Shown one piece after another: positions 376 through 63,832 of a stretch of 64,000 nucleotides of DNA. The stretch is from Patescibacteria group bacterium (GTDB lineage: Bacteria; Patescibacteriota; Patescibacteriia; 2-12-FULL-60-25). The notes beneath the pieces were generated by a model, which had not been told where the DNA came from, did not search any database, and saw only the letters and a program-made list of their open reading frames with translations. Numbering within the stretch: position 1 is the first letter of the stretch; each line of letters opens with the position of its first letter. The translations under genes and the position numbers were made by a program. The stretch is from positions 42,766 through 106,765 of the forward strand of contig JBAZKG010000003.1 in the NCBI GenBank assembly GCA_041650955.1. Direction: 5' to 3'.

Positions 376-486
376 GAAGAAGGTCTGTAGGTCAGTAGGA
401 CAGTATGACTGTAGGTTTCTTTTACTGATGACATCAGGAAGAGCGACCTACAGTCATACAGTCCTACAATCCTACAGACCTTCTTC
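376..486. repeat. Periodic palindromic element (PPE), family A (8-nt unit ~CTGTAGGN)
   Basis: Left arm GAAGAAGGTCTGTAGGTCAGTAGGACAGTATGACTGTAGGT pairs with right arm ACCTACAGTCATACAGTCCTACAATCCTACAGACCTTCTTC. The loop holds the mini-palindrome CTGATGACATCAG. A homologous copy, loop included, is at 28822-28928. Confidence 0.9.
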
Positions 487-585
487 CAAACGCCGCTCAA
501 CCAAGCAAAATGATCCGTAATTGTTGAACATATTTGCATAACGGAGTATCCTGCAAGTGCTTTCTTACGAACCATAGGACGCCCT

Positions 586-906
586 ATGAACAAAGCTGAA
601 CTTATTACGCATATCGCCGACGAAGTCGGCGTCACAAAGAAACAAGCCGAAGACATGGTCGAGGCTTTTGTCAAAATTGTGACAGATTCTCTCTGCAAAG
701 GAGGGGAAGTCACGATCGCCGGTTTTGGTGCATTCATGTCCAAGCAGCGTAAAGGCCGCATGGGCGTTAATCCGCAAAATCCGACAGAGAAGATGCCCAT
801 CCCTTCTGTCGTGGTCGCCAAATTCAAAGCCGGTAAAAATTTAAAAGAAGCGCTGAAGGCGAAAACGCCTGCGCCAGCGCCTGCGCTGGAAGCGCAAGCG
901 GCATAA
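586..906 (+). CDS. hup: HU/IHF-family nucleoid DNA-binding protein with short Ala/Pro-rich C-terminal tail
   Basis: MNKAELITHIADEVGVTKKQAEDMVEAFVKIV...GFGAF..KQRKGRMGVNPQNPTEKMPIPSVVVAKFKAGKNLKEAL is the canonical HU signature. An intrinsic terminator follows. Confidence 0.95.
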   Translation: MNKAELITHIADEVGVTKKQAEDMVEAFVKIVTDSLCKGGEVTIAGFGAFMSKQRKGRMGVNPQNPTEKMPIPSVVVAKFKAGKNLKEALKAKTPAPAPALEAQAA

Positions 907-911
907 AAAAT

Positions 912-940
912 ACCCTCGAGTTGAATCGAGGGTGTTTTTT
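912..940 (+). terminator. Intrinsic terminator of hup
   Basis: ACCCTCGA-GTTGAA-TCGAGGGT stem-loop followed by GTTTTTT. Confidence 0.85.
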
Positions 941-947
941 ATGTTGA

Positions 948-1016
948 AGTCGGTGAGTCGGAAGTCGATGAGTCGGTCAGAGTACTGATCGACTCACCGA
1001 CTTCCGACTCACCGAC
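948..1016. repeat. PPE, family B (8-nt unit ~AGTCGGTG)
   Basis: AGTCGGTGAGTCGGAAGTCGATGAGTCGGTCAG / loop AGTA / CTGATCGACTCACCGACTTCCGACTCACCGACT. It lies between the hup terminator and the rny stop codon. Confidence 0.9.
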
Positions 1017-1020
1017 TCTC

Positions 1021-2544
1021 TTAACGCGCGTATTCCACCACCCTTTTCTCTCGAATAAGCGTGATCCGAATTTCTCCCGGGTATTTCAATTCCTGTTCCA
1101 ATTTTGCGGCAATGTCGCGCGCAAGTTTTTCTGCCTGTAAGTCGTCGATATTCGCTGGATTCACAAAGACGCGAACTTCGCGGCCAGCTTGAATGGCATA
1201 TGAACGTTCAATGCCTTCAAAGCTGTTTACAACTTTTTCCAAATCTTCCAAACGCTTGATGTATTGTTCGTAGGAATCCTTGCGCGCACCCGGACGGGCT
1301 CCGCTGATTGCGTCTGCGGCTTTCACAATGACCGCTTCAATGGTCCGCGGCTTGTCTTCATGATGCCCGATGCTCTGATAGGCGATTTCTTCCGGCAAGC
1401 CGAATTTTTTCATGATTTGATACCCAAGCTCCGGATGCCCACCTTGCATGTCATGATCAACGGCTTTGCCGATATCATGGAACAGTCCGCCAATCTTGCA
1501 GACTTTTACATCTGCACCAAGCTGTTCGCCGAGTGCGATGGATAATCGTGCGACTTCCATGGAATGGAGAAGCGCGTTTTGGCCATAGCTCGTTCGGAAT
1601 TTCATCCGGCCGAGAATCTGAATGAGCTTCGGATCGATTTCCGCTGTTGAAATTCCAATTTCATACAGCGCGTCTTCTCCGGCCTTTTTCATTTCAACGG
1701 CAAGTTCGCGCTTGGATTCGGCAATGGTTTCCTCAATGCGCCCCGGATGGATGCGTCCGTCAGCAATAAGTTTTTCAAGCGAGCGTTTTGCGATCTGGCG
1801 GCGAATCGGACTGAATCCGCTGATGGTAATCATCCCCGGTGTTTCATCAACGATCAACTCACACCCAGTCAGCATTTCGATGGACTTGATATTGCGTCCC
1901 TCGCGACCGATTACGCGTCCCTTCATGTCGTTGCTTGGAAGTTCGACGTAGGATGTCGTCGTCTCGTGCACATGGCTTGCGGCCTGGCGCTGAATGGCGA
2001 CCGCGAGGATATTGCTCGCCTTGCGATCGATTTCATCCTGCGACTGTTCATCTAATTTCCGAATACGCGAAACGATCGTATCGTGATTTTGGTCTTCGAC
2101 CAATTTCATGATACGCGCAGACGCTTCTTCTTTTGTGAGCTGGCTGATTTCCTGAATGCGTGTTAATTCCTCGTTCTTTAAGGCGTCAGTCTCTGCTCGT
2201 GTTTTTTCGATGCGTTTGGCATCTTCATCAAGCTTTTCTTTTTGGGACTCGATATCAAGGAGCTTGTTTGCGAAAAGTTTTTCGCGCTCATTCAGCTCGC
2301 CTCGCTGTCCCTGAAGCTCGTCAAGCATCTTCTTTTGGTCGACTCGCGCTTCCTCCAGAATATGGATGGCTTTGTCCTTTGCGCGAATGAGCACATCCTG
2401 CTCTTTTTCTTCCGCGGCTTTAATAATGTGCACGGCTTTCGCCTCTGCACTGTTTACATTCGACTTGCCTTTCGCGTCACGGATAACCCATGCCACGATG
2501 GCCCCGGCCGTTGCGCCGAGTAATACATAAAAGACGGTAAGCAT
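1021..2544 (-). CDS. rny: Ribonuclease Y (N-terminal TM helix, coiled coil, KH domain, HD domain)
   Basis: 507 aa. KH motif GREGRNIKSIEMLTGCELIVDETPGMITISGFSPIRR. HD domain HSMEVARLSIALGEQLGADVKVCKIGGLFHDIGKA. Confidence 0.95.
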   Translation of the reverse strand: MLTVFYVLLGATAGAIVAWVIRDAKGKSNVNSAEAKAVHIIKAAEEKEQDVLIRAKDKAIHILEEARVDQKKMLDELQGQRGELNEREKLFANKLLDIESQKEKLDEDAKRIEKTRAETDALKNEELTRIQEISQLTKEEASARIMKLVEDQNHDTIVSRIRKLDEQSQDEIDRKASNILAVAIQRQAASHVHETTTSYVELPSNDMKGRVIGREGRNIKSIEMLTGCELIVDETPGMITISGFSPIRRQIAKRSLEKLIADGRIHPGRIEETIAESKRELAVEMKKAGEDALYEIGISTAEIDPKLIQILGRMKFRTSYGQNALLHSMEVARLSIALGEQLGADVKVCKIGGLFHDIGKAVDHDMQGGHPELGYQIMKKFGLPEEIAYQSIGHHEDKPRTIEAVIVKAADAISGARPGARKDSYEQYIKRLEDLEKVVNSFEGIERSYAIQAGREVRVFVNPANIDDLQAEKLARDIAAKLEQELKYPGEIRITLIREKRVVEYAR

Positions 2545-2748
2545 ACAATTCCCGTCTGGTCACAAAAAGGCAAACCGTTAGCGGTTTTTCGGTCTTCAGT
2601 TGAATTCACGTCAATATCCGCACAAAAACCGGTAGAAAGTCAAAAGGCGAAGGCCGATCCTCGATGAGCAAATCCATTTGCAGCCAGTCCGGGATGATCA
2701 AGATTTCTGGCTCAAGGGTACACCGGAACGGGGGAACGGTCAATAAGA

Positions 2749-2823
2749 GGGGCGTGGCGTGTGGCGTGGGGCGTGGTGAGGAAAAATTCTTCACCATGCC
2801 CTACGCCCCACGCCCTACGCCCC
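2749..2823. repeat. PPE, family C (7-nt unit ~GGGGCGT)
   Basis: GGGGCGTGGCGTGTGGCGTGGGGCGTGGTGA / loop GGAAAAATTCT / TCACCATGCCCTACGCCCCACGCCCTACGCCCC. Confidence 0.9.
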
Positions 2824-2876
2824 GTTATTTAAGAAGCCTCCACACGTATGCAGAGGCTTCGGAGGCTAGGTCAGGA

Positions 2877-3140
2877 TTACTCCTGAACGTTGGTGTTGCT
2901 GGCGACAGTGTTGTCGCTCGGACTGTTGGCTTGGCCGATTGGCTGTGCCGGACAGTTTGGCGCGGCGAACTGTTGCCGATGTTGCAGATCCACGTACCGC
3001 TGGGTCAACGTGCGGTAGTCCGTCCGCATTCGGTAGTCAGAAGCGCTGACGACCAGAAGGGTTGCAAGAAGAGCGCCGGCGGCGATGATGAGAAATGGAT
3101 TCGCACTGGTATTTTGTTGCACGGTGTTTTTTACGGACAT
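2877..3140 (-). CDS. Hypothetical small protein with one TM helix
   Basis: 87-aa ORF. Strong SD (AAAAGGAGATACG-ATG) upstream of the ATG at 3140. Hydrophobic stretch FLIIAAGALLATLLVV. No recognisable family. Confidence 0.6.
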   Translation of the reverse strand: MSVKNTVQQNTSANPFLIIAAGALLATLLVVSASDYRMRTDYRTLTQRYVDLQHRQQFAAPNCPAQPIGQANSPSDNTVASNTNVQE

Positions 3141-3264
3141 CGTATCTCCTTTTGTTGTGAGTCGATTGACTCGGTTTCATGAGTATCACGAATGGGATCC
3201 GTGACGGACTGTAGGCGTTTCCACGTTGTACATGTCCGTCGCCGATCCCCATGATGTATGGGAT

Positions 3265-3342
3265 GAGAAGTTAGAAGTTAGAATTTAGAAGTTAGAATAT
3301 GATCTCTTCTTCTAACTTCTAAATTCTAACTTCTAACTTCTC
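3265..3342. repeat. PPE, family D (7-nt unit TAGAAGT/TAGAATT)
   Basis: GAGAAGTTAGAAGTTAGAATTTAGAAGTTAGAA / loop TATGATCTCTTC / TTCTAACTTCTAAATTCTAACTTCTAACTTCTC. Confidence 0.9.
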
Positions 3343-3628
3343 TTACAATACCTCGAATAGATCATGACGTTGGTAAAACAATCGCCGCCGGAAGTGGGAA
3401 GAGGTGACGCATGATGTAATACATTACTCATGAATCCGGGCGTGGATGAGAAGCGACCGAGACCTGCCTACCGTCAGGCAGGCGATCCCAGTTGAATCAT
3501 CAACCCACAAATGCCCCCGAATCGTTTGTCCGACGGTCTGTCAGAGAACGAATGCGGTTTTTTCTCTCTCCTGCCCACGTCTGGCGGCGTTTGCTGTTCT
3601 CCCGTTATATAAGGGGAGGTTGTTGGTA

Positions 3629-3699
3629 TAGAAGTTAGAAGATAGAATTTAGAAGTGAGAGATCTTATTCTCACTTCTAAATTCTAACTTCTAACTTCT
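3629..3699. repeat. PPE, family D
   Basis: TAGAAGTTAGAAGATAGAATTTAGAAGTGAGA / GATCTTAT / TCTCACTTCTAAATTCTAACTTCTAACTTCT. Confidence 0.9.
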
Positions 3700-4535: not shown

Positions 4536-5102
4536 ATGAGCAAACACTTCAAGAGAAAATCGCCACGCCTGCCGACGTATACCTATTCTGAAGAAGGTTG
4601 GTATTTCGTCACGCTTTGCGTTAAAAATAGGCGTCCTATTTTTGGTCGGATTGAAAATGAGAAAATGATTTTGAGTCGAGAGGGGTATCTCGCAAAACAA
4701 GAATGGGTGAATACGTTTCACGTTCGAAAAAATCTTCGAAAAGATTCGTTTATCATAATGCCGGATCACATCCATATTATTATTCATTCGGTAGAAAATG
4801 GCGATCCGGCGGAACAGGGCGATCCGCCGGATCGCCCCTACGATACTGTCGAGTATGAGATTGGCAGAGCGCGTCGTATGATTTCTGGTTCAATTTCCGC
4901 TATCATCGGTCAATATAAATCATTGGTTACGAAACGAATCTGGCGAATGAGTAATGACAGAACGCCTATTTGGCAACGGAGTTTTTATGATCACATCATC
5001 CGAACGGAAAATGATCTTGAAAATCTTCGAGAATATATTCAATTGAATCCTGTAAATTGGCAATTGAAATGGGATCAGAGAAACCAGAATTGTTTTTATT
5101 AA
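4536..5102 (+). CDS. REP-associated tyrosine transposase (RAYT; IS200/IS605 Y1 transposase-like)
   Basis: HUH motif PDHIHIIIH. C-terminal WQRSFYDHIIRTENDLENLREYIQLNPVNW is typical of Y1_Tnp/RAYT proteins. An in-frame REP doublet encodes ENGDPAEQGDPPDRPYD between the HUH motif and the Tyr motif. Confidence 0.85.
   Translation: MSKHFKRKSPRLPTYTYSEEGWYFVTLCVKNRRPIFGRIENEKMILSREGYLAKQEWVNTFHVRKNLRKDSFIIMPDHIHIIIHSVENGDPAEQGDPPDRPYDTVEYEIGRARRMISGSISAIIGQYKSLVTKRIWRMSNDRTPIWQRSFYDHIIRTENDLENLREYIQLNPVNWQLKWDQRNQNCFY
4799..4842. repeat. REP doublet inside the RAYT coding sequence
   Basis: GGCGATCCGGCGGAACAGGGCGATCCGCCGGATCGCCCCTACG, read in frame as GDPAEQGDPPDRPY. Confidence 0.85.
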
Positions 5103-5225: not shown

Positions 5226-6116
5226 TCAGGAAGCGTAGGGGCGATCCGGCGGATCGCCTTTCTTCACAATCAACTCCTCAATATTTTCAGGGTTTAATTT
5301 CTCCAACCTCTTCGCCTCCTTCACATCAAACTCGCCAATCCTCGTCCGGCGGAGCGCCGTCAAATATGCGCCGACGTGGAGGGCTTCGCCGATATCGCGG
5401 GCAAGGGATCGGATATAGGTTCCGCTGGAGCAGGAGACATCGAACGACAGCATCGGCCATTCGTATGACGTGATATGCAGATCGTAAATTTTTACATCCT
5501 TCGTCGGCAAAACAACTCCTTCCATTTTTCCTTTTCGTGCCAGTTCATACAATTTTTTTCCTCCAACCTTTTTCGCGCTAAACGCTGGCGCTGTTTGCAC
5601 GTATCCGCCGCGAAATAAATCGAGTGCTTGTTCGACGTCATCTCGCATTGGGGGGATTGCTGATTGCTGATTGCTAATTACTGATTTTGATTTTGAGGAA
5701 TGAGCAATTGGCAATTGGCAATTAGTAATTATTCCTTCTACATCATCCGTATCACTCGTTGCCCCTAACATCGCCGTCGTCTGATATGTTTTATCAAGTC
5801 CGACAAGACCCGTGAGCATCTTTGTTCCCTTATTGATCCCGACGATCAGCAATCCTGTCGCAAACGGATCCAGCGTTCCGGCATGTCCCACACGCCGCGT
5901 CTTCGCAATCCTCCGCACGCGGTCAACCACATCATGGCTCGTCATTCCGGCTGGTTTGTCGATCAGGATGAGGCCGTCAAAAGAGGTGGGTGTAGGGGCG
6001 CACGGCTGTGCGCCCATCTTCGAGTTAGGGGCGTGGGAAGACATGGATGAGAGGGTACTGCATCTTGATAAAAACCTCAAAATGGTGTATGTTCGAATTG
6101 ACGGTGAACGCTTCAA
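5226..6116 (-). CDS. truB: tRNA pseudouridine-55 synthase TruB (start probably ATG 6017 or 6044, not the TTG at 6116)
   Basis: LILIDKPAGMTSHDVVDRVRRI...VGHAGTLDPFATGLLIVG is the TruB catalytic-Asp motif. REP sequence encodes the N-terminal MGAQPCAPT and the C-terminal GDPPDRPYAS. A family-K PPE lies in frame mid-gene. Confidence 0.9.
   Translation of the reverse strand: MKRSPSIRTYTILRFLSRCSTLSSMSSHAPNSKMGAQPCAPTPTSFDGLILIDKPAGMTSHDVVDRVRRIAKTRRVGHAGTLDPFATGLLIVGINKGTKMLTGLVGLDKTYQTTAMLGATSDTDDVEGIITNCQLPIAHSSKSKSVISNQQSAIPPMRDDVEQALDLFRGGYVQTAPAFSAKKVGGKKLYELARKGKMEGVVLPTKDVKIYDLHITSYEWPMLSFDVSCSSGTYIRSLARDIGEALHVGAYLTALRRTRIGEFDVKEAKRLEKLNPENIEELIVKKGDPPDRPYAS
5234..5258. repeat. REP element overlapping the truB 3' end
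   Basis: CGTAGGGGCGATCCGGCGGATCGCC. On the minus strand it is translated as the truB C-terminus ...GDPPDRPYAS. Confidence 0.85.
5656..5731. repeat. PPE-like element, family K (ATTGCTG / GCAATTG units), in frame inside truB
   Basis: ATTGCTGATTGCTGATTGCTAATTACTGATT ... GAGCAATTGGCAATTGGCAATTAGTAATTA. The arms are only partly complementary. The element encodes ITNCQLPIAHSSKSKSVISNQQSAI within TruB. Confidence 0.7.
5991..6014. repeat. REP variant at the truB 5' end
   Basis: GTAGGGGCGCACGGCTGTGCGCCC. It has the same GTAGGGGCG head as the RAYT-flanking REPs but a different palindromic stem. Confidence 0.85.
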
Positions 6117-7529: not shown

Positions 7530-7536
7530 TTTCAGT

Positions 7537-7579
7537 TTGGCTACTAGCTACTGGCCAGAAGCCAGTAGCTAGTAGCCAA
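7537..7579. repeat. PPE, family E (short copy)
   Basis: TTGGCTACTAGCTACTGGC / CAGAA / GCCAGTAGCTAGTAGCCAA. Confidence 0.9.
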
Positions 7580-7655
7580 AAGCCCGTAATGTAGACATTC
7601 TACAAAGAATTGTGATATACATCCATTATCAGCACTGAATAAAGGGAGGTATTGC

Positions 7656-8274: not shown

Positions 8275-8493
8275 CGACCTACCCCCGGCCCCTTCCTTTA
8301 CCCCGCCGTCGGCGGGGCGAGCAGGAAGGGGAGCTCTGACTCATGGTGGTTCCGTATGGGAATATATATTTTGTCATCGAATTAAATTTTTGTTTAAAGT
8401 CTGCGTTAAATCATCTAATAAAGTTTCTTTTAAAAATCAAACCTCGGCAGTATAGCTCCCCTTCCTGCGAAGGAAGGGGCCGGGGGTAGGTCG
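8275..8493. mobile_element. MITE-like element, copy 1 (~219 bp; 40-bp terminal inverted repeats with nested palindromes)
   Basis: Termini CGACCTACCCCCGGCCCCTTCC...AGGAAGGGGAGCT and AGCTCCCCTTCCTGCGAAGGAAGGGGCCGGGGGTAGGTCG. AT-rich core homologous to copy 2. The left terminus carries an extra nested palindrome CCCCGCCGTCGGCGGGG. Confidence 0.85.
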
Positions 8494-10575: not shown

Positions 10576-10646
10576 AGTGCGTGGTTAGTCGTTGCGTTGT
10601 TGCGTGGGATTTCCTACGCAACCACGTAACGACGTAACCACGCACT
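10576..10646. repeat. PPE, family F (8-nt unit ~GTTGCGTG)
   Basis: AGTGCGTGGTTAGTCGTTGCGTTGTTGCGTGGGA / TTTCC / TACGCAACCACGTAACGACGTAACCACGCACT. Confidence 0.9.
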
Positions 10647-11604: not shown

Positions 11605-11638
11605 GTAGCGGCTCAACGTACCGAGCCGCTACTTTTTT
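11605..11638 (+). terminator. Intrinsic terminator
   Basis: GTAGCGGCTC-AACGTACC-GAGCCGCTAC followed by TTTTTT. Confidence 0.85.
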
Positions 11639-11641: not shown

Positions 11642-11710
11642 TGGTTACTAGCTTCTAGCTTCTGGCTTTCAGCGAATAGCCAGTAGCCAGAAGCTAGAAG
11701 CTAGTAGCCA
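11642..11710. repeat. PPE, family E variant
   Basis: TGGTTACTAGCTTCTAGCTTCTGGCT / TTCAGCGAAT / AGCCAGTAGCCAGAAGCTAGAAGCTAGTAGCCA. Confidence 0.9.
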
Positions 11711-11723
11711 AAACAAAGTTTAA

Positions 11724-11751
11724 GCCGCCGAACGAGAAGGTGTTCGGCGGC
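11724..11751. terminator. Bidirectional hairpin terminator
   Basis: GCCGCCGAAC-GAGAAGGT-GTTCGGCGGC with an A-run before and a T-run after. It lies just 3' of the minus-strand gene ending at 11779. Confidence 0.7.
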
Positions 11752-11778
11752 TTTGTTGTATGAAAGAGCTCCGATGAG

Positions 11779-12325: not shown

Positions 12326-12477
12326 TAGTAGCTAGTAGCTAGTAGCTAGTAGCTAGAAGCTAGGAAGATAAAAATCTTCCAAATAATCCCAGATAATCCC
12401 AGCTACTAGATGCTAGCTACCAGCTACTATATTATTTGCATTTTTCCACAGCTTCTAGCTACCAGCTACTAGCTACT
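12326..12477. repeat. PPE, family E, compound copy
   Basis: (GTAGCTA)x4-GAAGCTAGGAAGAT / AAAA / ATCTTCC..., followed by two right-arm blocks AGCTACTAGATGCTAGCTACCAGCTACT and GCTTCTAGCTACCAGCTACTAGCTACT. Confidence 0.85.
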
Positions 12478-13857: not shown

Positions 13858-13870
13858 ATTCGTTTTAAAT

Positions 13871-14067: not shown

Positions 14068-14069
14068 AT

Positions 14070-14208: not shown

Positions 14209-14214
14209 AAATAT

Positions 14215-28820: not shown

Positions 28821-28821
28821 G

Positions 28822-51229: not shown

Positions 51230-51236
51230 AGAAGAG

Positions 51237-51309: not shown

Positions 51310-51604
51310 AAATGAAATGCCGCCGGTATCCTACTTATTTCGGATACTCGGCGGCACGATAGGGTGTAGTTGGTTGCTCTTGCAAACGGGTCAGGGACAT
51401 GTCCCGTCTTTTGTCGTTTACGCGAGGCGTTTGACTACTATTGCGGGCCGAAGGGCGACGGTCACTTGGTATTTAGATTAAAGAGATTGCTTCTTCGCAT
51501 GCAGGATTTCCCTTTCTGCGTTGCTTGTTTTTCGACTTTTGGCCAAATCATTGGCCGACGGTACGGTACGAACCATCTGTCCTATACGTTCAGGACTTCA
51601 GGAT
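51310..51604 (-). ncRNA. Candidate ~295-nt non-coding (or micro-ORF) transcript of unknown class
   Basis: Near-consensus promoter TTGACA-17-TAGAGT (51611-51639), whose -35 box contains the sugar-transferase stop codon. Several local hairpins. Strong terminator TGCCGCCGAGTATCC..GGATACCGGCGGCA plus U-rich tail (51318-51356). Only a 31-codon ORF (MVRTVPSANDLAKSRKTSNAEREILHAKKQSL). Confidence 0.4.
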
Positions 51605-53089: not shown

Positions 53090-53202
53090 GGTTCTACGAA
53101 TATACGAATGATACGAATCGGCGAATGACGTGCTACGAAAGCATTCGTAAATTCGTACCATTCGTAATTCGCTGATTCGTATCATTCGTATATTCGTAGA
53201 CC
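53090..53202. repeat. PPE, family H (long loop with extra TTCGTA units)
   Basis: GGTTCTACGAATATACGAATGATACGAATCGGCGAAT ... ATTCGCTGATTCGTATCATTCGTATATTCGTAGACC. Confidence 0.9.
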
Positions 53203-53240: not shown

Positions 53241-53701
53241 ATGCCAAGACCGAACGATAAGCCGAATTTTGTCCCCCGTCGTCCCCCCGTAGCTTTACGC
53301 GAAGGGGGGGTCTGGGAGGGCAATCATCTATCTGGGATGATCATTGCTGATCACCTCGTTGCGAGCGACCAGTCTCCCGACGTACGTCGGGATCTTGCTC
53401 TTGCACCGGAGAGGGCTTGCCGCGCTACGTTGTTACCAACGCATGAGAGATGTAACAGATGTCTTTCGACACCCATACCATCTCACTTTTCACTTTTCCC
53501 CCGATGGACATCGGGGTAGTATTGTCTCTGTGGCGCTTTCCCTGGGTTTATAGTGAACGTCGGGTACGTATCCTTTCGTTCTCTACCATATCCCGGCCGT
53601 CGTTAACGGCTCTCCATGAACCCCGATGGACATCGGGGAACGGTGTTCGGACTTTCCTCCCCGATGGACATCGGGGCGATTGCCTGTTCGACCTTGGCTT
53701 C
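53241..53701 (-). ncRNA. rnpB: RNase P RNA, bacterial type A (~460 nt)
   Basis: Minus strand starts GAAGCCAAGGTCGAACAGGCAATCGCC...GAGGAAAGTCCGAACAC (P1-P4) and contains GCCACAGAGACAA, GAAAAGTGAAAAGTG and GGTAACAACG...GGTGCAAGAGCAAG. It ends ...GACAAAATTCGGCTTATCGTTCGGTCTTGGC, which pairs back to the 5' end. Compare E. coli GAGGAAAGUCCGGGCUCC and ACAGAACCCGGCUUAUCGGUCAG. Confidence 0.92.
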
Positions 53702-53743: not shown

Positions 53744-53836
53744 AAGTCAATAAGTCAACGAGTCGATAAGTCAACAAGTGCACTGACTGACGGTTTGAGA
53801 ACTCGTTGACTTGTTGACTATTTGACTTGTTGACTT
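53744..53836. repeat. PPE, family B variant (AGTCAACA units)
   Basis: AAGTCAATAAGTCAACGAGTCGATAAGTCAACAAGT ... ACTCGTTGACTTGTTGACTATTTGACTTGTTGACTT. Confidence 0.9.
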
Positions 53837-53918
53837 GTGTTTGAAAGGCTTGATCTCTTTCAAGAATCTTGATACAACCTGTACCTGACGGTTTTCACAT
53901 ATTCAAGGAGGTGCCGTC

Positions 53919-55222: not shown

Positions 55223-55247
55223 ATTAATAGGGAGTATATCAAGAAAA

Positions 55248-55304
55248 GAAGCGAGAAGCGAGCACGAGAAGATGATCTTCTCGTGCTCGCTTCTCGCTTC
55301 TCGC
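55248..55304. repeat. PPE, family L
   Basis: GAAGCGAGAAGCGAGCACGAGAAGA / TGA / TCTTCTCGTGCTCGCTTCTCGCTTCTCGC, between the two pilin genes. Confidence 0.9.
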
Positions 55305-55309
55305 ATCTA

Positions 55310-56103: not shown

Positions 56104-56171
56104 AGTAGCTGGTAGCTAGTAGCTGGGGCTATTTGGAAGTTTTTTCTTCCAAGCTTCCAGCTACTATCTAC
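56104..56171. repeat. PPE, family E (imperfect)
   Basis: AGTAGCTGGTAGCTAGTAGCTGGGG ... CCAAGCTTCCAGCTACTATCTAC. Confidence 0.8.
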
Positions 56172-56210: not shown

Positions 56211-58223
56211 ATGAAAAAGCTCCTCGTTTTTCTTATCCTCATTCTTGCGATACTGGCAGGAGGTGGATATTGGTTCTGGTCGCTCGGGCGCATTCCGGCT
56301 GAAGTTCCCCGAACCGCAGCATTGAACATCGAATCCCAGGGCGTGCAGATTCGAAGAACGCGCGATGCGGGCTGGGAACAGGCAAATAGCGGAATGCAAA
56401 TCTATGAAGGATGGTCGGTCAAAACGGATGAAAACGGGCGGGCAACGATTCGTTTTTATGATCAGGGCGAAACGCGCCTGTCGCAGAACACGGAGATTGT
56501 CGTTGACAAAGCGTCATTTGAAATGAGTGGAGCCGGACGCATGATTGTTTCCGTTAAATTGCAAACCGGACGCGTCTGGAGCCGAATATTGAAACTTCTT
56601 GATATCGGAAGCTCGTATGACGTCCGCACGACCAATATTGTAGCGACGGTTCGAGGAACGTCGTTTGATCTTTCAAAGAACGCAGACGGATCATCGGACA
56701 TCCTTGTCGGAGAGTCGGCCGTAACGGTTGCGAATCTCGGAGGAAAAACCGTGACATCGGTCGCCGAAGGAATTGTGGCAAGTTTTAACGCTTCTGGCGC
56801 GCTCGTCCATCAAGAGTTCGCATCAAGCGCCACCCAAAATCAATGGATCATGAGCAACGAACTTGCGGATTCGGCATTCGTCGATACGGAGAAAAAAATC
56901 CAGCGCGACCAATTGCAGGCGCTTGGCGGTCCGGGCCCTGACAGCAATCTCTATGCCATAACCCAGTTGTCCGAACGCGTTCATCTGGCGCTTGCAAAGG
57001 GAGCGGAAAAAGATGCGCTTGCGGAACAGTACGCCGCGCGAAAGATTTTTCATCTCATCGAACTCGTTGAATCCGGAAAAACGGGTCTGGCGGCGCAGGA
57101 ATTTTCCAAACTTGATGCATCCGTCAAAGCGTTGCCGACAGGCTCGGCGGGGGAAGCTGAACGCGTGCATCTTGCGAACGCGTTATCGCGAATACATTTC
57201 CTTGTTCAAGACGCGAATCCATCCGATGCCATGTATCCGTTCAAACAGCGCGTTGAAAATCTTGTGAGCGAGCTTGCCGCCTCGGATCCAGCCTCATCTT
57301 TCTATGTGCGCATGCTCGCCTTCGATGCGCGTCTTGATGAAGCGTCGAATGCCATCACGAATCGGTCATTCGACGAAGCGCGCATCGGCTTAGATGGCGT
57401 CCGGGACGGAATCGAGAATATCCGCCGCGAGTCCGCTCCGATTTTTCCATCATTGCCTGAAGAACGCCGAAGCGCGCTGGAAGACAAGCTCGCGGCGCTT
57501 GATGCGCGCACGGTTATGATGCGCATGCGGCTTGATCTTGCCATGCGCGAGCCGCAGGGAGGTTCGAGCACGTCGACCATGCCGGGCATTACGAATCCGC
57601 CGGACGGCGCGCTCACGCCTGATGCGCCGAATGCATCCAGTTCCGCGCTGTCGGGCTTTTCGAATGCGCAGACAGGCAATACGCCCGCATTTACGTCGAT
57701 CGAAATATCGCTCGCATCGCATACGCTTGATATTGGGAAATTGGTTTCCATCAAAGCAAAAGGCATTTTAGCCGATGGGACAAAAACCGATATCACGAAT
57801 CTCACGCAATTCGCCATCGACCATCCGGATATTGCGGTCGTGAACGGACCGACGGTCAAAGGATTGCGCATCGGGAACGGCGTGATCACGGCAACGTATA
57901 ATGACGGAGGAACGCAGAGAACAGCGACGTCGAATGTTGTGGTGCAGGGAAAAATCGTTCCGGTTGAACTCATTCTTAAATCCATGTCCGGATCGACGAT
58001 CGCAACGTCGACAACCTCTTTGCTCTCCGCAACCTTGAGATATAACACGGATGAATTAAAGAATGTGACGGCGAATACGAATTTCACTATCGTCGAAGGG
58101 GGAGGATCCATTTCGAATGGGGCGTTCACGGCATCAAACGAACCGGGAGCCACCTCCATCACCGGTTCAACGGTTGAAAACGGCGTCACGATTATCGGAA
58201 CAATGAAAATCATCGTTAAGTAG
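56211..58223 (+). CDS. Membrane-anchored FecR-domain protein with C-terminal bacterial Ig-like (Big_2) domains
   Basis: ATG 56211 (MKKLLVFLILILAILAGGGYWFW). FecR-like RATIRFYDQGETRLSQNTEIVV. Big_2-like LADGTKTDITNLTQFAIDHPDIAVVNGPTVKGLRIGNGVITATY. Confidence 0.8.
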   Translation: MKKLLVFLILILAILAGGGYWFWSLGRIPAEVPRTAALNIESQGVQIRRTRDAGWEQANSGMQIYEGWSVKTDENGRATIRFYDQGETRLSQNTEIVVDKASFEMSGAGRMIVSVKLQTGRVWSRILKLLDIGSSYDVRTTNIVATVRGTSFDLSKNADGSSDILVGESAVTVANLGGKTVTSVAEGIVASFNASGALVHQEFASSATQNQWIMSNELADSAFVDTEKKIQRDQLQALGGPGPDSNLYAITQLSERVHLALAKGAEKDALAEQYAARKIFHLIELVESGKTGLAAQEFSKLDASVKALPTGSAGEAERVHLANALSRIHFLVQDANPSDAMYPFKQRVENLVSELAASDPASSFYVRMLAFDARLDEASNAITNRSFDEARIGLDGVRDGIENIRRESAPIFPSLPEERRSALEDKLAALDARTVMMRMRLDLAMREPQGGSSTSTMPGITNPPDGALTPDAPNASSSALSGFSNAQTGNTPAFTSIEISLASHTLDIGKLVSIKAKGILADGTKTDITNLTQFAIDHPDIAVVNGPTVKGLRIGNGVITATYNDGGTQRTATSNVVVQGKIVPVELILKSMSGSTIATSTTSLLSATLRYNTDELKNVTANTNFTIVEGGGSISNGAFTASNEPGATSITGSTVENGVTIIGTMKIIVK

Positions 58224-58309
58224 CTAGGAGCTAGTAGCTAGTAGCTGGGGTGGATGAAGGGATTTCTTATATTTATCTTCCCAGCTACCAGCTACTAGCT
58301 CCTAGCTAC
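58221..58309. repeat. PPE, family E
   Basis: GTAGCTAGGAGCTAGTAGCTAGTAGCTGGGG ... CCCAGCTACCAGCTACTAGCTCCTAGCTAC. Its first TAG is the stop codon of the FecR-like gene. Confidence 0.9.
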
Positions 58310-58315
58310 CTCTTC

Positions 58316-60304
58316 ATGAAGCCATTCCAGTCCAAACACCTCCCAACCATCATCGGAGCGGCGATCGGACTGCTCTGCGCTCTTTTCTGGTCTCTTGGCG
58401 TATTTCAAACGCTCACGGCACGGGCTGGAGATCAATTATTTACCTCGCGCCATCCGAATCCGCATATCGTGATCATCGCGATTGACGATGCGTCGATTTC
58501 ATCCGTAGGACGCTGGCCTTGGGATCGGTCCGTGCATGCAAAATTGATTCGCTCCCTGTCCAAAGCAGGCGCGCGGCTGATCGCGTATGATGTGAACATT
58601 TCGGAACCGCAAGACGGAAAACAGGATGCGGATCTTGCTTCCGCAGTTGCACAGGCGGGGAATGTTCTTCTTCCCGTTGAGCTCGATCTGCAGAAAACAT
58701 TCGGGACATACGCCTACGATCCGGATCATGTGATTGCGCCCATCGCATCGCTTGCGGCCGCAGTCGAGGGGACCGGATTTTCAAACATGATGCCGGATTC
58801 GGACGGCGTGGTCCGCCGCATTGCATTATCCGCAAAGAATGCGCGGGGATCGGATGTTGTTTTTTCATTCGGCTATGAAGCGGCGCGAGCATCGGATCCA
58901 TCGCTCGCAACCGAACGCGTTCCGCTGGATGCGCAAAACCAGCTCATTATTTCTTTCCCCGGAAAACCGTCAGCTTCATTCCCGATGATTTCCGCCGAAG
59001 ACGTGCTGGCGGAAAACATGCAGACGAATTCGCTCCGCGATGCGATTGTTTTTGTCGGAAGCACGGCATCGGATTTGCATGACGAGCAGTTCGTTCCGAC
59101 ATCGCAGGGAGTCCCGATGTCCGGCGTGGAAATCCATGCGTCGATCGCCGATACGCTCGTACAGCGCGCATGGCTCCGTCCCGTTCCCAAGTTGATCAGC
59201 GCCATCATTATTATTCTGTTCGCCGCGCTGGTCGGTTTTGCCGTTGGAAAATGGAAAGGGCGATTCAGCGCCCTCTTTGCCGTTCTTCTTTGGGGGTCGT
59301 CTCTTCTTGCGGCAATTCTTCTGTTTGATCAGGGCATCATGTTCGATATTGTGTGGCCGACCATCGCAATCGTTCTTGCCTACGCGGGAGCGACGGCCGA
59401 ACGGCGCATTGCCGCCGAACTGGAACGGCGGTCCGTTGAACGGTTATTCTCGCGCTACGTGAGCCCGAAAGTCGTTGAAGCGATCGTGAAAGATCCAAAC
59501 AGCATTTCGCTCGTCGGCGAACGGCGAAACATGAGCGTTCTCTTTTCCGACATTCGCGGATTTACGTCGCTCACGGAACGGCTACAGCCGGAAGCGCTTG
59601 TTCGCATGCTGAATGCCTATTTTGATGCAATGACGCATGTCGTCTTTGATCACCAAGGCGTGCTGGACAAATATATCGGCGACGCGGTCATGGCATTTTG
59701 GAATGCGCCGTTTCATCAGGACGATCACGCTGTCCTTGCCGTGTCATGCGCCTTGCGCATGAAAGAGATTTTGCGCGACATGAATGAATCCGGCCTTCTC
59801 GGCAAATCGGCATGGCGCATCGGCATCGGCGTGAGCACCGGGGACATGATTGTCGGCAACATCGGCGGAGGCGCGCATACGGACTATACGGTGATCGGCG
59901 ATGCTGTGAATATTGCCAGCCGACTCGAAGAACTGACGAAAGAATACCGCGTGGGAATTCTGATTTCCGAGCCGACGGCAAAAGCCGTGAGCGAAACGAT
60001 TTTGACGCGCCGCCTTTCGCGCGTTCGCGTATTCGGCAAGCACATTTCCGTGAATATGTACGAAGCCGTCGCACACCTCGGTCAGGCGACGGAAAAACAA
60101 TTGTCTCTGCGCGAAACATACGAGCGCGCGCTCGAAGCATACGAAGCGCGGTCATTTGACTCGGCGATAAAAATCCTTCAAGCTCTTTTAGTTGATGTTC
60201 CTGATGACCAGCCATCGCATATCCTTTTGGAACGCGCGAAAAATTTCCTCACCTCCCCTCCGCCGGAAGATTGGGACGGGACGTGGATTTACACGAAGAA
60301 GTAG
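58316..60304 (+). CDS. CHASE2-domain class III adenylate/guanylate cyclase
   Basis: ATG 58316. CHASE2 (WPWDRSVHAKLIRSLSKAGARLIAYDV), 3 TM helices, cyclase core VLFSDIRGFTSL..GDAVMAFWNAP..RIGIGVSTGDMIVGNIG..YTVIGDAVNIASRLE. Confidence 0.9.
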   Translation: MKPFQSKHLPTIIGAAIGLLCALFWSLGVFQTLTARAGDQLFTSRHPNPHIVIIAIDDASISSVGRWPWDRSVHAKLIRSLSKAGARLIAYDVNISEPQDGKQDADLASAVAQAGNVLLPVELDLQKTFGTYAYDPDHVIAPIASLAAAVEGTGFSNMMPDSDGVVRRIALSAKNARGSDVVFSFGYEAARASDPSLATERVPLDAQNQLIISFPGKPSASFPMISAEDVLAENMQTNSLRDAIVFVGSTASDLHDEQFVPTSQGVPMSGVEIHASIADTLVQRAWLRPVPKLISAIIIILFAALVGFAVGKWKGRFSALFAVLLWGSSLLAAILLFDQGIMFDIVWPTIAIVLAYAGATAERRIAAELERRSVERLFSRYVSPKVVEAIVKDPNSISLVGERRNMSVLFSDIRGFTSLTERLQPEALVRMLNAYFDAMTHVVFDHQGVLDKYIGDAVMAFWNAPFHQDDHAVLAVSCALRMKEILRDMNESGLLGKSAWRIGIGVSTGDMIVGNIGGGAHTDYTVIGDAVNIASRLEELTKEYRVGILISEPTAKAVSETILTRRLSRVRVFGKHISVNMYEAVAHLGQATEKQLSLRETYERALEAYEARSFDSAIKILQALLVDVPDDQPSHILLERAKNFLTSPPPEDWDGTWIYTKK

Positions 60305-60387
60305 CTAGGTGCTGGTAGCTAGTAGCTGGGGCATCGGATGGGCTTCCAGTATCTTCTTATCTTCCTAGCTACCAGCTACTAGCTACT
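60301..60387. repeat. PPE, family E
   Basis: GTAGCTAGGTGCTGGTAGCTAGTAGCTGGGG ... CCTAGCTACCAGCTACTAGCTACT. Its first TAG is the stop codon of the cyclase gene. Confidence 0.9.
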
Positions 60388-60391
60388 AATT

Positions 60392-60943
60392 ATGATCAAA
60401 CCTCGACTTCTCCTCCATGTCTGTTGCGGCGTCTGTTCCGCTTATATCCCGGAGCTTTTGGCTCCGGATTTTGACGTAACCATGTATTACGATAATCCGA
60501 ATATTTATCCGGCAGAGGAATTTCGAAAGCGAGCCGATGCGGCGAAAGAAATGGCAAAACGGTATGGCATGGCCTTTGTCGAAGTTCCGCAAAATGTTGA
60601 ATCATGGAATCTGGCAGTCGTAGGACATGCGACGGATCGGGAAAACGGCGAGCGATGCCGCTTATGCATGGTTCATCGCTTGGACAGCGCATTCGCATAC
60701 GCAAAAGAACATCAATTCGACGCCGTTGCGTGCACGCTCGGCGTCAGTCGTCGCAAGCATATCGACATGGTGAACGCGATCGGCAAACAATTGTCAGACG
60801 CGTACGGCATTCCATTCCTCGATCGCGATTGGAGAAAAAACGGCGGAGAAGATGAATCCCAGCGCCGCGCCCGCGAGTACGGCATCTACCGGCAGGAGTA
60901 TTGCGGGTGCATTTATTCGATGAAGAAGTCGGTTAGTCGATAA
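60392..60943 (+). CDS. queH: Epoxyqueuosine reductase QueH (DUF208)
   Basis: LLLHVCCGVCSAY, ERCRLCMVHRL and QEYCGC form the Cys pattern of QueH. 183 aa. The last 6 codons (KKSVSR) and the stop lie in a PPE. Confidence 0.88.
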   Translation: MIKPRLLLHVCCGVCSAYIPELLAPDFDVTMYYDNPNIYPAEEFRKRADAAKEMAKRYGMAFVEVPQNVESWNLAVVGHATDRENGERCRLCMVHRLDSAFAYAKEHQFDAVACTLGVSRRKHIDMVNAIGKQLSDAYGIPFLDRDWRKNGGEDESQRRAREYGIYRQEYCGCIYSMKKSVSR

Positions 60944-61006
60944 GTCGGTGAGTCGGTTAGTAAATGCAATTACTCACCGACTCACCGACTTATCGACTTC
61001 CCGACT
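60925..61006. repeat. PPE, family B
   Basis: GAAGTCGGTTAGTCGATAAGTCGGTGAGTCGGTTAGTAA / ATGCAA / TTACTCACCGACTCACCGACTTATCGACTTCCCGACT. Confidence 0.9.
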
Positions 61007-61029: not shown

Positions 61030-61863
61030 ATGAAACGCATTGCCACGCCTCTCCTCATCGTGACCGTCCTCTTCATGGGCTGGGGTTGCGTTCGCGGCGG
61101 AGCGACCCAACCCGTCGTTTCTTCTCGCTCCTCGCTCCTCGCTCCTCGCTCCTCATCTACGACGACCGCCGAAGCCGCAATACCTTTCACGTGGTCATCC
61201 ATCGGCGATGGCGCGGAACGCGGAGAAAAGACGATTCCGAACGGCGAATATACGGCGCATCTTATTGCGTACCGTTTTGATCCGAAGAAGTATGATTTTC
61301 ATTTTGCGCAAACAGATCAGCCAAAACTTGTGAGCGCATGGATGCAGGAAAATTCAACAGCTTCGTTTATCATCAACGGCGTGTATTTTCAGGAGGATCA
61401 TTCTCCGGCTGGGATGTTGAGGATTGATAATACAAATGTCGGTTCACGGAGTTTTGATGCAAAAAAATCAGGGTTGATTATATTCGGTTCTGACGGGAAT
61501 CGGATTATGGATACGTCCGTCAACAACGTGAAAGATCCAAAAGCTTCAAACGAAGCGCAGAGCTATCCGTTCTTGATCAAGAATGGGTCTCCAGCGATAC
61601 AGGATGACAGCGGTCTTGTCGCGCGCCGTTCATTTATCGGAATAGATATAGACGGAAAAATTATTTTCGGCGCCTATGTCGGCGGAGAAATCAGTTTATC
61701 GTCTCTGTCTCAACTCCTCGCGACGCTTCCCGTCACATGGACGAACGCAATCAATCTGGACGGGGGAGCATCAACGGGATTTTCGGCAAATATCAGCGGT
61801 TATCAAGAACTTGAGGATTCGTACGTCGATATTCCGAATGTAATTGAAGTAGAGAAGCGCTAA
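61030..61863 (+). CDS. Phosphodiester glycosidase-family (DUF2233) lipoprotein
   Basis: ATG 61030. MKRIATPLLIVTVLFMGWGC lipobox-like signal, and NLDGGASTG near the C-terminus. It contains a family-L tract encoding SSRSSLLAPRSSS. Confidence 0.78.
   Translation: MKRIATPLLIVTVLFMGWGCVRGGATQPVVSSRSSLLAPRSSSTTTAEAAIPFTWSSIGDGAERGEKTIPNGEYTAHLIAYRFDPKKYDFHFAQTDQPKLVSAWMQENSTASFIINGVYFQEDHSPAGMLRIDNTNVGSRSFDAKKSGLIIFGSDGNRIMDTSVNNVKDPKASNEAQSYPFLIKNGSPAIQDDSGLVARRSFIGIDIDGKIIFGAYVGGEISLSSLSQLLATLPVTWTNAINLDGGASTGFSANISGYQELEDSYVDIPNVIEVEKR
61125..61154. repeat. Family L tract (CTCGCTC units) inside the DUF2233 gene
   Basis: CTCGCTCCTCGCTCCTCGCTCCTCGCTCCTC, one arm only, in the linker after the signal peptide. 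Confidence 0.85.
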
Positions 61864-61868: not shown

Positions 61869-61958
61869 TTGGTCTACGAATGTACGAATAATACGAATCG
61901 GCGAATACTCACAAAGGAAGTATTCGCCGATTCGTATTATTCGTACATTCGTAGACCA
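61869..61958. repeat. PPE, family H, perfect 41-bp arms
   Basis: TTGGTCTACGAATGTACGAATAATACGAATCGGCGAATACT / CACAAAGGA / AGTATTCGCCGATTCGTATTATTCGTACATTCGTAGACCA. Confidence 0.93.
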
Positions 61959-62948: not shown

Positions 62949-63006
62949 ATAGGCGAAAGTGTACGGGTTTTGGATACAATTGGGAATAGGAGGCGTTTTC
63001 TTCGTA

Positions 63007-63035
63007 TTGACATATCAGCTAAAAATCGGTATATT
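63007..63035 (+). promoter_or_regulatory. Sigma70-type promoter
   Basis: TTGACA-17 nt-TATATT. Confidence 0.75.
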
Positions 63036-63088
63036 GCGCTGTGCACTTTTCTTGACTTGTCCTTTGCCATTCTAAAGAGAGGTTGTTC

Positions 63089-63685
63089 ATGCAAACAGAA
63101 AATCCATTGCCAGAAAACGTTTTGCCGCCTGCGAGTGCGAGGGTGATATCCAGCATTCCCCAGCCGCCGATCGTCAAAACCGTGATCGAAGCGGTCGTGG
63201 CTTTGCGACAGAAGATTGATGCGATTCACGGCGGCTTGCGATGCCTGACCGTGATCACGAATGGATCGTTCCCGGTCCACCAGGATGAGGATTCGATGCA
63301 TGTGTGGTTTGTCGAGGCTACGGGTGCAAAAAGAACTCTCGATGCTTATGGGTATATTGAACGCATGTTTCCATGGCTGTTCGGCCAAGATCAGCGTCCA
63401 GCCGGTGACTGCTATTTTTTCACCTATTGGCACGAACGCGACCGATTGCAACTCCGCGTTTGGGTCTCTACTCCAGCATATTTGATCAATATTCCCTGGC
63501 TCGAGGCGCTTGATACATGGATCGTGAATGGGGTTCGTAAGCTCGCAGAACAAAAGGAGATATTGGACGCCGATGCCTATCAGCAATTGGAGCGCATCAC
63601 GCAGTTGTTCGCAGAACAATGTCGCGAACTTCTTTCGCCAAGCAATCTCCTTGCGGCTTCCGATTCACCTACGCCAGCCGCCTAA
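63089..63685 (+). CDS. Hypothetical protein
   Basis: ATG 63089 preceded by AAAGAGAGGTTGTTC, with a promoter upstream and a terminator downstream. Preferred over the antisense ORF 62945-63619. Confidence 0.65.
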   Translation: MQTENPLPENVLPPASARVISSIPQPPIVKTVIEAVVALRQKIDAIHGGLRCLTVITNGSFPVHQDEDSMHVWFVEATGAKRTLDAYGYIERMFPWLFGQDQRPAGDCYFFTYWHERDRLQLRVWVSTPAYLINIPWLEALDTWIVNGVRKLAEQKEILDADAYQQLERITQLFAEQCRELLSPSNLLAASDSPTPAA

Positions 63686-63716
63686 CCTCGACTTTCAGAT
63701 TTCATCATACTCACGC

Positions 63717-63753
63717 GCCCCCGTTCGGTTCATCCGTTCGGGGGCTTCTGTTT
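63717..63753 (+). terminator. Intrinsic terminator
   Basis: GCCCCCG-TTCGGTTCATCCGTT-CGGGGGC followed by TTCTGTTT. Confidence 0.75.
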
Positions 63754-63754
63754 G

Positions 63755-63832
63755 GGCCACTAGGGAACGAAGCCATTAAGCCACTAGGGAAATGCAATTT
63801 CTTACTGGCCTAATCCCTTAATAGCATGGTGG
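63755..63832. repeat. PPE, family G (right arm degenerate)
   Basis: GGCCACTAGGGAACGAAGCCATTAAGCCACTAGGGA ... TCTTACTGGCCTAATCCCTTAATAGCATGGTGG. Confidence 0.75.

Follow-up and report, generated by a model that had tools for sequence, protein, structure and literature searches.

A 64,000-nt stretch of the genome of a Patescibacteria group bacterium (GenBank assembly GCA_041650955.1, contig JBAZKG010000003.1, positions 42,766 to 106,765 of the forward strand; hereafter the window, with coordinates counted from its first base) raises the question of what has placed a hairpin at so many of its gene boundaries, and within several of its genes, and how those hairpins stay so nearly perfect. Each hairpin arm is built from tandem copies of a 7- or 8-nt unit, and the second arm is the reverse complement of the first, as can be read directly in GAGAAGTTAGAAGTTAGAATTTAGAAGTTAGAA-loop-TTCTAACTTCTAAATTCTAACTTCTAACTTCTC. 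On balance, we lean toward reading these elements as lineage-specific, non-coding, non-autonomous dispersed palindromes, akin to REPINs and to the Rickettsia palindromic elements (RPE), that have been remodelled by slippage and by template switching from one arm to the other.

The design itself is unmistakable in the window. Tandem Repeats Finder (TRF), run over all 64 kb, returned arrays of period 7 or 8 (or 14 or 16) throughout, with about 2-5 unit copies per arm, and most of these arrays are paired with an array of the reverse-complement unit 0-120 nt away. An inverted-repeat scan (arms of at least 18 nt, complementarity of at least 78%, span of at most 260 nt) yielded 50 such repeats, and in 35 of these the arms were clearly periodic, at 7, 8, 14 or 16 nt; each of 30 dinucleotide-preserving shuffles gave 0-5 inverted repeats, none of them periodic. 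The curated list holds 50 elements of about 15 unit types, which occupy 4,017 nt, or 6.3% of the window, and range from 22 nt (a single arm, GTAGCTG x3 of family W, at 56105-56126; letters are our labels for unit families) to 171 nt. About 40 of the 50 are hairpins with two reverse-complement arms close together and about 10 are single arms. An earlier note, made by eye from the letters alone, had proposed such a combined scan, and its description was accurate in most respects: about 52 elements covering 6-7% of the window, arms of tandem 7- or 8-nt units, AT-rich loops (62% AT versus 51% in the window), and loci with only one arm (14281, 16422, 17847 and 61124). Folded as single-stranded DNA, six elements reached free energies between -31 and -46 kcal/mol (z-scores between -10 and -16), and in two of the six the minimum-energy fold was shifted by one unit, so that the register-slipped hairpins envisaged earlier are indeed competitive. 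The description of the families as unrelated went too far: several units lie 1-2 bases apart (AAGTCGGT/AAGTCTGT, AGGAGCG/AGAAGCG, GCCACTAG/GCCAGTAG and GGTAGGT/GGTAGCT), where chance would yield roughly one or two such pairs.

The hairpins are a real feature, neither an artefact of assembly nor limited to the window. The Logan assembly of run SRR8542065, made by another pipeline, agrees with the window at every base of a 2,170-nt stretch that contains two hairpins. This Logan contig corresponds to window positions 58220-60389, and both of its ends coincide with the outer ends of two hairpins of unit GTAGCTA (W; 58219-58310 and 60300-60388), which indicates that short-read assemblies are broken by these repeats. 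Two further hairpins lie directly outside the window on the same 121-kb contig, and closer relatives share the design, which removes the concern that the elements might be confined to the window.

Among relatives, the periodic-hairpin trait is lineage-specific and patchy. The window's gene content fits Patescibacteria (RNase Y, type IV pilus ATPases, pilin-like proteins and many unannotated open reading frames [ORFs]; gene calls were those stored with the ENA metagenome contig ERZ27247363:k141_2008197), and its translation initiation factor IF-2 is 70-71% identical to that of metagenome-assembled genomes (MAGs) labelled Candidatus Uhrbacteria, a member of the Parcubacteria group of the Patescibacteria, and of one mislabelled "Gammaproteobacteria", and 61-62% identical to that of other Patescibacteria MAGs. 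The same scan over 80 loci (978 kb) of relatives with PilB identities of 41-74% found 13 hairpins with periodic arms, of which many are low-complexity AT-rich sequence; this amounts to 0.013 per kb as opposed to about 0.55-0.6 per kb in the window. The density is matched neither by shuffled sequence, which the earlier note had named as grounds for abandoning the idea, nor by these related loci. The closer relatives share the design, mostly with other units: GGAATAC, TGCGCAT and GGCGTTT in the locus that we label L002, GGAGTAA and GGTTGCGT in L003, and CGTACCG in L006, while L013, whose TsaD is 88% identical, has three hairpins within 1.25 kb. Three further loci (L004, L005 and L014) are nearly hairpin-free. 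Our literature searches found no account of such repeats in bacteria of the candidate phyla radiation (CPR), and Rfam at gathering thresholds matched only RNase P RNA and a tRNA-Glu in the window, with no match to a hairpin. A cyanobacterial origin, which the heptamers might suggest, was rejected, as the window has a single HIP1 site and an RNase Y gene and its best relatives are Uhrbacteria/Patescibacteria MAGs.

Several hairpins are gains at operon junctions and in in-frame protein loops. Compared with solved structures, TsaD carries about 25 extra residues (aa 231-258; nt 30172-30246), TrmD has two inserts (aa ~79-95 and 193-223) and TruB has one (within aa ~106-133); the alignment breaks coincide with elements, and all inserts keep the frame. 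The tsaD element is a hairpin of unit AGTCGGTN (S; 30172-30247) that forms a 25-codon insert with an ortholog in L013. The trmD elements are single arms, GCCCCAC/GCCCAAC at 16422-16455 and AGGAGCG x4.3 (E) at 16731-16760, the latter beginning a 31-aa insert, and that of truB is an imperfect hairpin of units GATTGCT / GCAATTG (A; 5655-5730, aa 105-130). A glycosyltransferase ORF (47363-48577) runs through two elements, namely scattered GGAGCGA / CTCGCTC arrays (E; 47582-47738) and an in-frame hairpin of GGGGCGT x4.3 (G; 47949-48078, arm complementarity 29/29, 71-nt loop), and two or three other ORFs hold one each, among them a GGGGCGT hairpin in frame (G; 2751-2823 in ORF 2664-3182) and a single arm of CTCGCTC x4.4 (E; 61124-61154 in ORF 61030-61863). 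The earlier mention of several gene interiors was therefore right and, if anything, understated. The in-gene copies come from four families (S, G, E and A), and none has a TAG-containing unit. In 60 TsaD homologues, the length of the insert loop varies between about 9 and over 35 residues, and some of the insert peptides reveal palindromic DNA. At operon junctions, the gap between tsaD and tsaE is 0-5 nt, and that between pilB and the next gene 3-27 nt, in most relatives, as against 72-105 nt in the window, filled by hairpins of unit GTCCACA (H; 30558-30617) and unit AGTCGGTG (S; 33453-33545, PilB|hyp336), respectively. The SdpI|HTH gap holds a hairpin of unit TTGATTGC (A; 18596-18676), and that of L014 is 37 nt long and has none.

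Two lines of evidence bear on how the sequences evolve. First, the two arms of a hairpin are 93% complementary in register and 76% when shifted by one unit, with a unit-to-unit identity within an arm of 75% (Wilcoxon p = 6.5e-6); since the arms match best in register, the variants of individual units are mirrored between them. Dispersed copies of a family can also carry imperfect units in the same order, which implies that sequence was copied between loci rather than arising independently. Specifically, three TAGAAGT hairpins (T; 26852-26931, arm complementarity 36/36; 27848-27935; and 31053-31123, 32/32) have identical arms that include the variant TAGAATTCAGAAGT, and near-identical pairs are found at 19022/20582 and, in the TACGAATG family, at 48579/61870. 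Neighbours of the same family number 7, versus 3.8 expected (p = 0.07), and near-identical copies stand on both sides of TerC (26852/27848), YkuD (19022/20582) and a CHASE2 cyclase (58219/60300). The strand orientation of the elements is uninformative, as a palindrome is its own reverse complement, and the orientable elements are limited to five pairs that share loops.

Second, orthologous copies differ in how many units they have, and their substitutions are phased by unit and partly compensated. In the tsaD insert of the 88%-identical relative, each of the four left-arm units has a G>A change at one shared phase, two of the four right-arm units have the complementary C>T change, and the variable eighth base has been homogenised too. 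The hairpin in the Trx|TrxR gap (12877-12924, unit GGTTGCGT, family R) keeps both its position and its unit in L003 (3144-3202), where TrxR is 75% identical; the same gap holds another, GT-rich unit in L002 and only a small plain hairpin in L004 and L005. At the tsaD|tsaE and pilB junctions, the hairpin design is retained with a changed unit. Upstream of tsaD, the S hairpin of the window (unit AAGTCGGT, 29390-29468, its last base 4 nt upstream of the start codon) corresponds in L013 to one of family C, the loop of which matches the window's C element at 28819; this may be a case of conversion, or else of replacement or rearrangement. Target-site duplications, which the earlier note had suggested looking for, were not seen at the elements (mean best flanking direct repeat of 2.0 nt, versus 2.6 nt at random sites). 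The observed pattern fits slippage within arms combined with template switching between them, processes of which the second is known to homogenise and extend the arms of inverted repeats (PMC7202029, PMC8604942, PMC13100816). Thus, of the generative mechanism proposed earlier, the part that invoked DNA-level slippage or template switching accords with the changes between orthologs, while transposase action on the periodic hairpins was not borne out.

The same unit families are present outside cellular genomes. Scanning IMG/VR with exact unit patterns turned up dozens of contigs that carry units of families T, G, W and R, and five of these (L106, L110, L112, L128 and L135) each have 2-4 periodic hairpins between genes, of families T (TAGAAGT/TAGGAGT) and G (GGGGCGT). 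These uncultivated phage contigs, with hairpin regions at 1596-3491 of L110, 15-3313 of L106 and 1036-2450 of L112, include one that encodes a portal protein (L110) and one that encodes minor-head and tape-measure proteins (L106); the capsid protein of L110 had no match among cultured phages. In two further contigs (L111 and L123), consecutive heptamer arrays change their unit, from TTATTCA to CTAACTT to CTAACTG/ATAACTG (CAGTTAG to AAGTTAG). The T unit, written as GAAGTTA, differs at a single base from TCAGTTA, which is complementary to TAACTGA, a heptamer already described in Beggiatoaceae, cyanobacteria and Bacteroidetes (PMC4679880).

Under the reading of dispersed palindromes remodelled in place, three steps would follow one another. 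First, copies are gained at new sites, that is, in gaps of every orientation, often by or around terminators, at operon junctions and, in frame, in tolerant loops of essential proteins, a step that the comparisons above document. Second, an element would persist for long while its sequence keeps being remade, with replication slippage between 7-8-nt units altering the number of units and spreading their variants, and with intramolecular template switching (quasi-palindrome correction) transferring changes from arm to arm; the two together would leave the hairpin near-perfect while, at a given site, one "family" drifts or gives way to another. Third, the copying agent would act in trans on any cellular DNA, which would account for same-family hairpins in phage contigs. 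Several observations weigh against this account. The relatives compared, none of which is closely related, offered no clean pair of filled and empty sites in their DNA; the phage contigs have no assigned hosts; slippage alone does not account for the narrow period of 7-8 nt; the window's only transposase-like gene is flanked by a different, classical repeat and is not linked to the hairpins, and homologues of that gene were absent from about 1.9 Mb of other loci; and the design is conserved at orthologous sites, with canonical terminators replaced at two of them, so that selection for function is possible.

Selection for function is the basis of the first alternative, in which the hairpins do a job as RNA or DNA structures, whether ending transcription (bidirectionally or without a factor), shielding the 3' ends of mRNAs or serving as sites for RNase processing, and were selected in place of classical terminators; the periodicity would then be a by-product. 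The two replaced terminators speak for it: relatives have canonical terminators at YkuD|DUF4230 and FtsH|S1, and the window has only a periodic hairpin, of unit CCACTAGG (P; 20582-20663, filling the entire gap; the relative is L014) and of unit GTTGCGTG (R; 36579-36652), respectively. So do the great stability of the folds and the retention of the design at orthologous sites despite sequence change. However, position and composition point elsewhere. The window is 82% coding, and most elements are intergenic, often with a start or stop codon 0-20 nt away, yet hairpins or single arrays occupy divergent gaps (9 of 15) as often as convergent (8-10 of 14) and tandem ones (about 20 of 30). T-runs are rare at the periodic hairpins, and a consensus terminator scan of the first 20 kb found ordinary GC-stem and T-run terminators at many gene ends, distinct from them. 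Such terminators lie directly beside the hairpin of unit AGTCGGTG in the convergent HU|RNase Y gap (S; 946-1018, terminator 912-933) and before the single arm GCCGTAAGC (K; 17847-17885, terminator 17820-17838), on both sides of a hairpin of units CTAGCTT/AGCCAGT between convergent genes (W; 11642-11710, terminators 11605-11632 and 11722-11753), and within the loop of a GTAGCTG hairpin (W; 14841-14943, arms 24/24, S16 terminator 14874-14903). Arm mismatches on the transcribed strand show no excess of G-U-compatible over A-C pairs (10 versus 8, small numbers), and hairpins stand within coding regions and 4 nt upstream of a start codon. Given the even gap occupancy, the scarcity of T-runs, the coexisting canonical terminators and the absence of a wobble asymmetry, the hairpins cannot be reduced to terminators or to RNA elements read one way only, as the earlier note had argued when it set them apart from conserved terminators. 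We consider the functional explanation unlikely, although, under the reading that we prefer, hairpins not needed as terminators may have come to act as such at some sites that no longer have the canonical one.

An equally unlikely alternative is that they are REPIN-like elements moved by HUH tyrosine transposases of the RAYT type, which would act on the hairpins in single-stranded form and use GTAG/CTAC as recognition or cleavage sites. A RAYT-like ORF does lie in the window (4536-5102): it matches the IS200-like Y1 transposases (Pfam Y1_Tnp, E = 3.9e-6, above threshold), its best PDB match is 4er8, the E. coli TnpA-REP, to which its HUH motif and catalytic Tyr align, and its score against NCBIfam REP_Tyr_transpos is 74 bits, below the cut-off of 80. 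The absence of target-site duplications is as expected of HUH transposition, REPINs are long-lived hairpin replicators (PMC3116915, PMC3337134), and the arms, which make up 4.6% of the bases, hold 33% of the window's GTAG/CTAC. But this gene is flanked by its own classical, non-periodic, GTAG-headed REP, GTAGGGGCGATCCGSCGGATCGCC (at 4396, 4437, 5105 and 5235), all four full copies of which are at the RAYT locus and none elsewhere in the window, and one REP stands in frame within its coding sequence (4800-4850, peptide NGDPAEQGDPPDRPYD). Further, GTAG/CTAC, on which the earlier note had placed weight, is no common denominator: it is present in 20 of 40 hairpins, where it recurs in each unit instead of heading the repeat, families T, S, G, E and A lack GTAG, and TAG-containing words are generally enriched in hairpins, with 66% of the window's CTAG in the arms. 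About 15 unit types would also need many RAYTs, and none was seen near hairpins in the other loci. We regard the RAYT gene as a lead rather than as a demonstrated driver of the periodic hairpins. Other short motifs recur as well. An apical GGAA(GA)…(TC)TTCC closes loops across unit families (e.g., 12360-12385, 25888-25908, 40440-40470 and 51262-51283), and it, like GAAGA, the MboII site, or GGAA at element borders, is 4-9-fold enriched over a window background that does not control for intergenic composition.

Less probable still is a purely local origin, in which each hairpin would arise from sequence at its own site, such as a terminator stem, by slipped template switching, with no transfer between loci and with units that converge. 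One hairpin does enclose a terminator, related gaps hold small plain hairpins, the period of 7-8 nt is close to the arm length of small terminator stems, and outer palindromic extensions differ from copy to copy (AAAA/TTTT versus TGGAATAT/ATATTCCA, the latter an additional 8-bp palindrome around the T hairpin at 27848-27935). Nevertheless, dispersed copies share ordered unit variants and similar loops, the same families are found in another genus and in phage contigs of different G+C content, and hairpins occupy operon junctions and protein loops where relatives offer no starting hairpin. That the arrays are regulatory, as binding sites of a sequence-specific protein or as non-B DNA, e.g., G-quadruplexes in GGGGCGT arrays, is quite improbable: such roles have been proposed for the GGGAATC and TAACTGA heptamers (PMC4692102, PMC4679880), family G has four G4 runs and some hairpins lie just upstream of start codons, but about 15 units would require as many binders, only one family is capable of forming G-quadruplexes, the pairing of reverse-complement arms favours duplex hairpins, and no pattern was seen in the functions of flanking genes. 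Finally, an artefact of assembly or amplification has a negligible chance of being correct, for although the sequence comes from a metagenome contig built of short reads, another assembler and run gave the identical sequence, in-gene copies keep their reading frames, and independent MAGs from other studies share the design.

The design, which the earlier note had not recognised as REP/BIME, ERIC, Correia, BOX or RPE, does have a precedent, and the closest that we found is the inverted GGGAATC heptamer arrays of Xanthomonas. These consist of tandem 7-nt units, mostly about four copies, in 70-75 convergent pairs per genome (Rehm et al. 2015, PMC4692102), and the pairs lie on opposite strands as intergenic inverted repeats, with positions kept between species and a variable number of units (PMC4692102). 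The window is alike in its tandem 7-nt intergenic units and in its close opposite-strand arrays (about 40 of 50 elements). It differs from that single G-rich family, which has been discussed in terms of G-quadruplexes, in having about 15 unit types, some of period 7 and some of period 8 nt and none of them GGGAATC; copies in frame within genes, copies in phage contigs and a host from the CPR, all found here, are not described for Xanthomonas.

With REPs and REPINs, the elements share the form of hairpin-forming extragenic palindromes, their many dispersed copies, the lack of target-site duplications and long persistence (PMC3116915, PMC3337134, PMC3733652). A REP, however, is a 20-40-nt imperfect palindrome headed by GTAG/CGTC, with one family per RAYT, whereas the arms here are 3-5 tandem 7-8-mers, and the RAYT of the window (4536-5102) is flanked by GTAGGGGCGATCCGSCGGATCGCC instead of by the same repeats. 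RPE, reported by Ogata et al. in 2000, are said to insert in frame in protein-coding genes. They too are palindromic repeats of a reduced genome (mentioned also in PMC1779305), found between genes and in frame within genes, including essential ones. Yet RPE are 100-150 nt long, have no periodic arms, belong to other families and another phylum, and decay, whereas the tsaD insert stays palindromic across lineages; the Patescibacteria host and the lack of an Rfam match set the window's elements apart from them, a distinction drawn without alignment to an RPE consensus.

Cyanobacterial STRR heptamer repeats were reportedly described by Mazel in 1990. Like these and the TAACTGA repeats, from which the T unit is one base off, the window has intergenic tandem heptamers of a kind found in several phyla (PMC4679880), but TAACTGA repeats are nearly always direct arrays and not hairpins, with one indirect repeat in 170, in Beggiatoa (PMC4679880). 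Both the Xanthomonas type and STRR have one characteristic unit per genome (GGGAATC; CCCCAGT and others), as opposed to about 15 in 64 kb here. Quasi-palindrome template switching, as treated in PMC7202029, PMC8604942 and PMC13100816, matches the mirrored variants and compensated changes, although it is a mutational mechanism and not an element family, and it is not known to sustain a genome-wide population of periodic hairpins. MITEs (miniature inverted-repeat transposable elements) fit poorly, given that there are no target-site duplications, the whole element is palindromic and no parent insertion sequence lies in the window. Intrinsic terminators are likewise a different class, as the terminator scan picks other sites and hairpins are equally frequent in divergent gaps, and the units abut without spacers in arrays paired with their reverse complement, with no cas genes in the window, in keeping with the earlier exclusion of CRISPR.

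The remaining elements extend these families along the window. Family T (TAGAAGT) has further hairpins at 3265-3342 (arm complementarity 33/33), 3628-3699 and, in a divergent gap, 37798-37874; between the first two lies a non-periodic 20-nt inverted repeat with a 175-nt loop (3379-3593). Family W is represented by a complex element at 12326-12477, with a left arm of TAGTAGC x5.4 (12326-12363) and right arms at 12399-12427 and 12449-12477, by GTAGCTA arrays that form an inverted repeat with a 112-nt loop (34574-34744) and by a GTAGCTG hairpin at 40412-40495, and a hairpin of units GCTACTA/GCCAGTA (7536-7588) combines W with Q. Family Q itself has a hairpin of unit GCCAGTAGG (25862-25934) and arrays of GCCAGTAG / CTACTGG (49864-49940). 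Hairpins of unit GTTGCGTG (R) lie 16 nt past the infB stop codon (10588-10642) and in a divergent gap (21273-21345); the first P hairpin, of unit CCACTAGG, occupies the divergent HTH|YkuD gap (19022-19103); and K has a hairpin of two copies of the 14-nt unit AGCTTACGGCTGAC (31553-31625, 33/33). Family C has an 8-nt unit, CTGTAGGA/AGGTCAGT, in the divergent gap between PilT-like and HU genes (376-485), a CTGTAGGA hairpin (28819-28931) that follows tRNA-Glu (28697-28771) and a degenerate hairpin of CTGTAGGA/TAAGTCTG (44210-44326, 32/41). Family G adds a single arm of CCCACGC x4.4 (14281-14311) and a GGGGCGT hairpin (51236-51310), S a hairpin of unit AGTCGGTN (60926-61006), Y (GGTAGGT) one for which the minimum-energy fold is slipped by one unit (39655-39728), and F (AGAAGCG) one at 55247-55308 (27/27). 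Finally, M, of unit TACGAATG, has hairpins at 48579-48670 (38/38), at 61870-61958 (40/40), where it occupies a whole convergent gap, and at 53093-53200, adjoining the RNase P RNA (53242-53695), on the opposite side of which stands an S-like hairpin of unit AAGTCAAC (53744-53838).

The window also contains repeats of other kinds. A plain, non-periodic 21-bp palindrome (28330-28376) lies in the long TerC|tRNA-Glu gap. Three MITE-like elements of about 220 bp (8275-8493, 13859-14079 and 15504-15706) have terminal inverted repeats of 24-52 nt (…CCCCGGCCCCTTCCTTCGCAGGAAGGGGAGCT), two of them with common internal sequence; the called ORF at 13918-14250 may be spurious, since it overlaps one of them. 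A 21/27-nt coding repeat (GCGGCCGAAGCG…, 14682-14791) lies in the C-terminal extension of ribosomal protein S16, a low-complexity tail unrelated to the hairpins.

Compared with known small dispersed palindromic and heptamer repeats, those of the window are unusual in their many unit types, strict 7-8-nt period, in-frame copies in essential genes, long-kept palindromy and presence in phage contigs. A bolder view, which we put forward as a minor and doubtful possibility, is that periodic-arm hairpins are a distinct, wider class of self-renewing DNA replicators, made or kept by an activity with a 7-8-nt step, whether replication-linked or enzymatic, shared by CPR bacteria and phages and related to the heptamers of Xanthomonas, cyanobacteria and Beggiatoaceae, which in this lineage would have entered essential genes and taken the place of some canonical terminators.

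CPR/Patescibacteria genomes are held to be streamlined, and here 6% of 64 kb is repeat, situated in most gaps and in four tRNA-modification genes. At a practical level, the hairpins interrupt short-read assemblies. Beyond this, they offer a natural system for the survival and co-evolution of palindromes in a cell with a reduced repair repertoire, for the origin of repeat "families" by concerted evolution and for the making of new protein loops by selfish DNA. The unit families common to phage contigs hint at a phage-host marker, and the link to the heptamers of other phyla bears on the old, unexplained excess of 7-nt tandem repeats.

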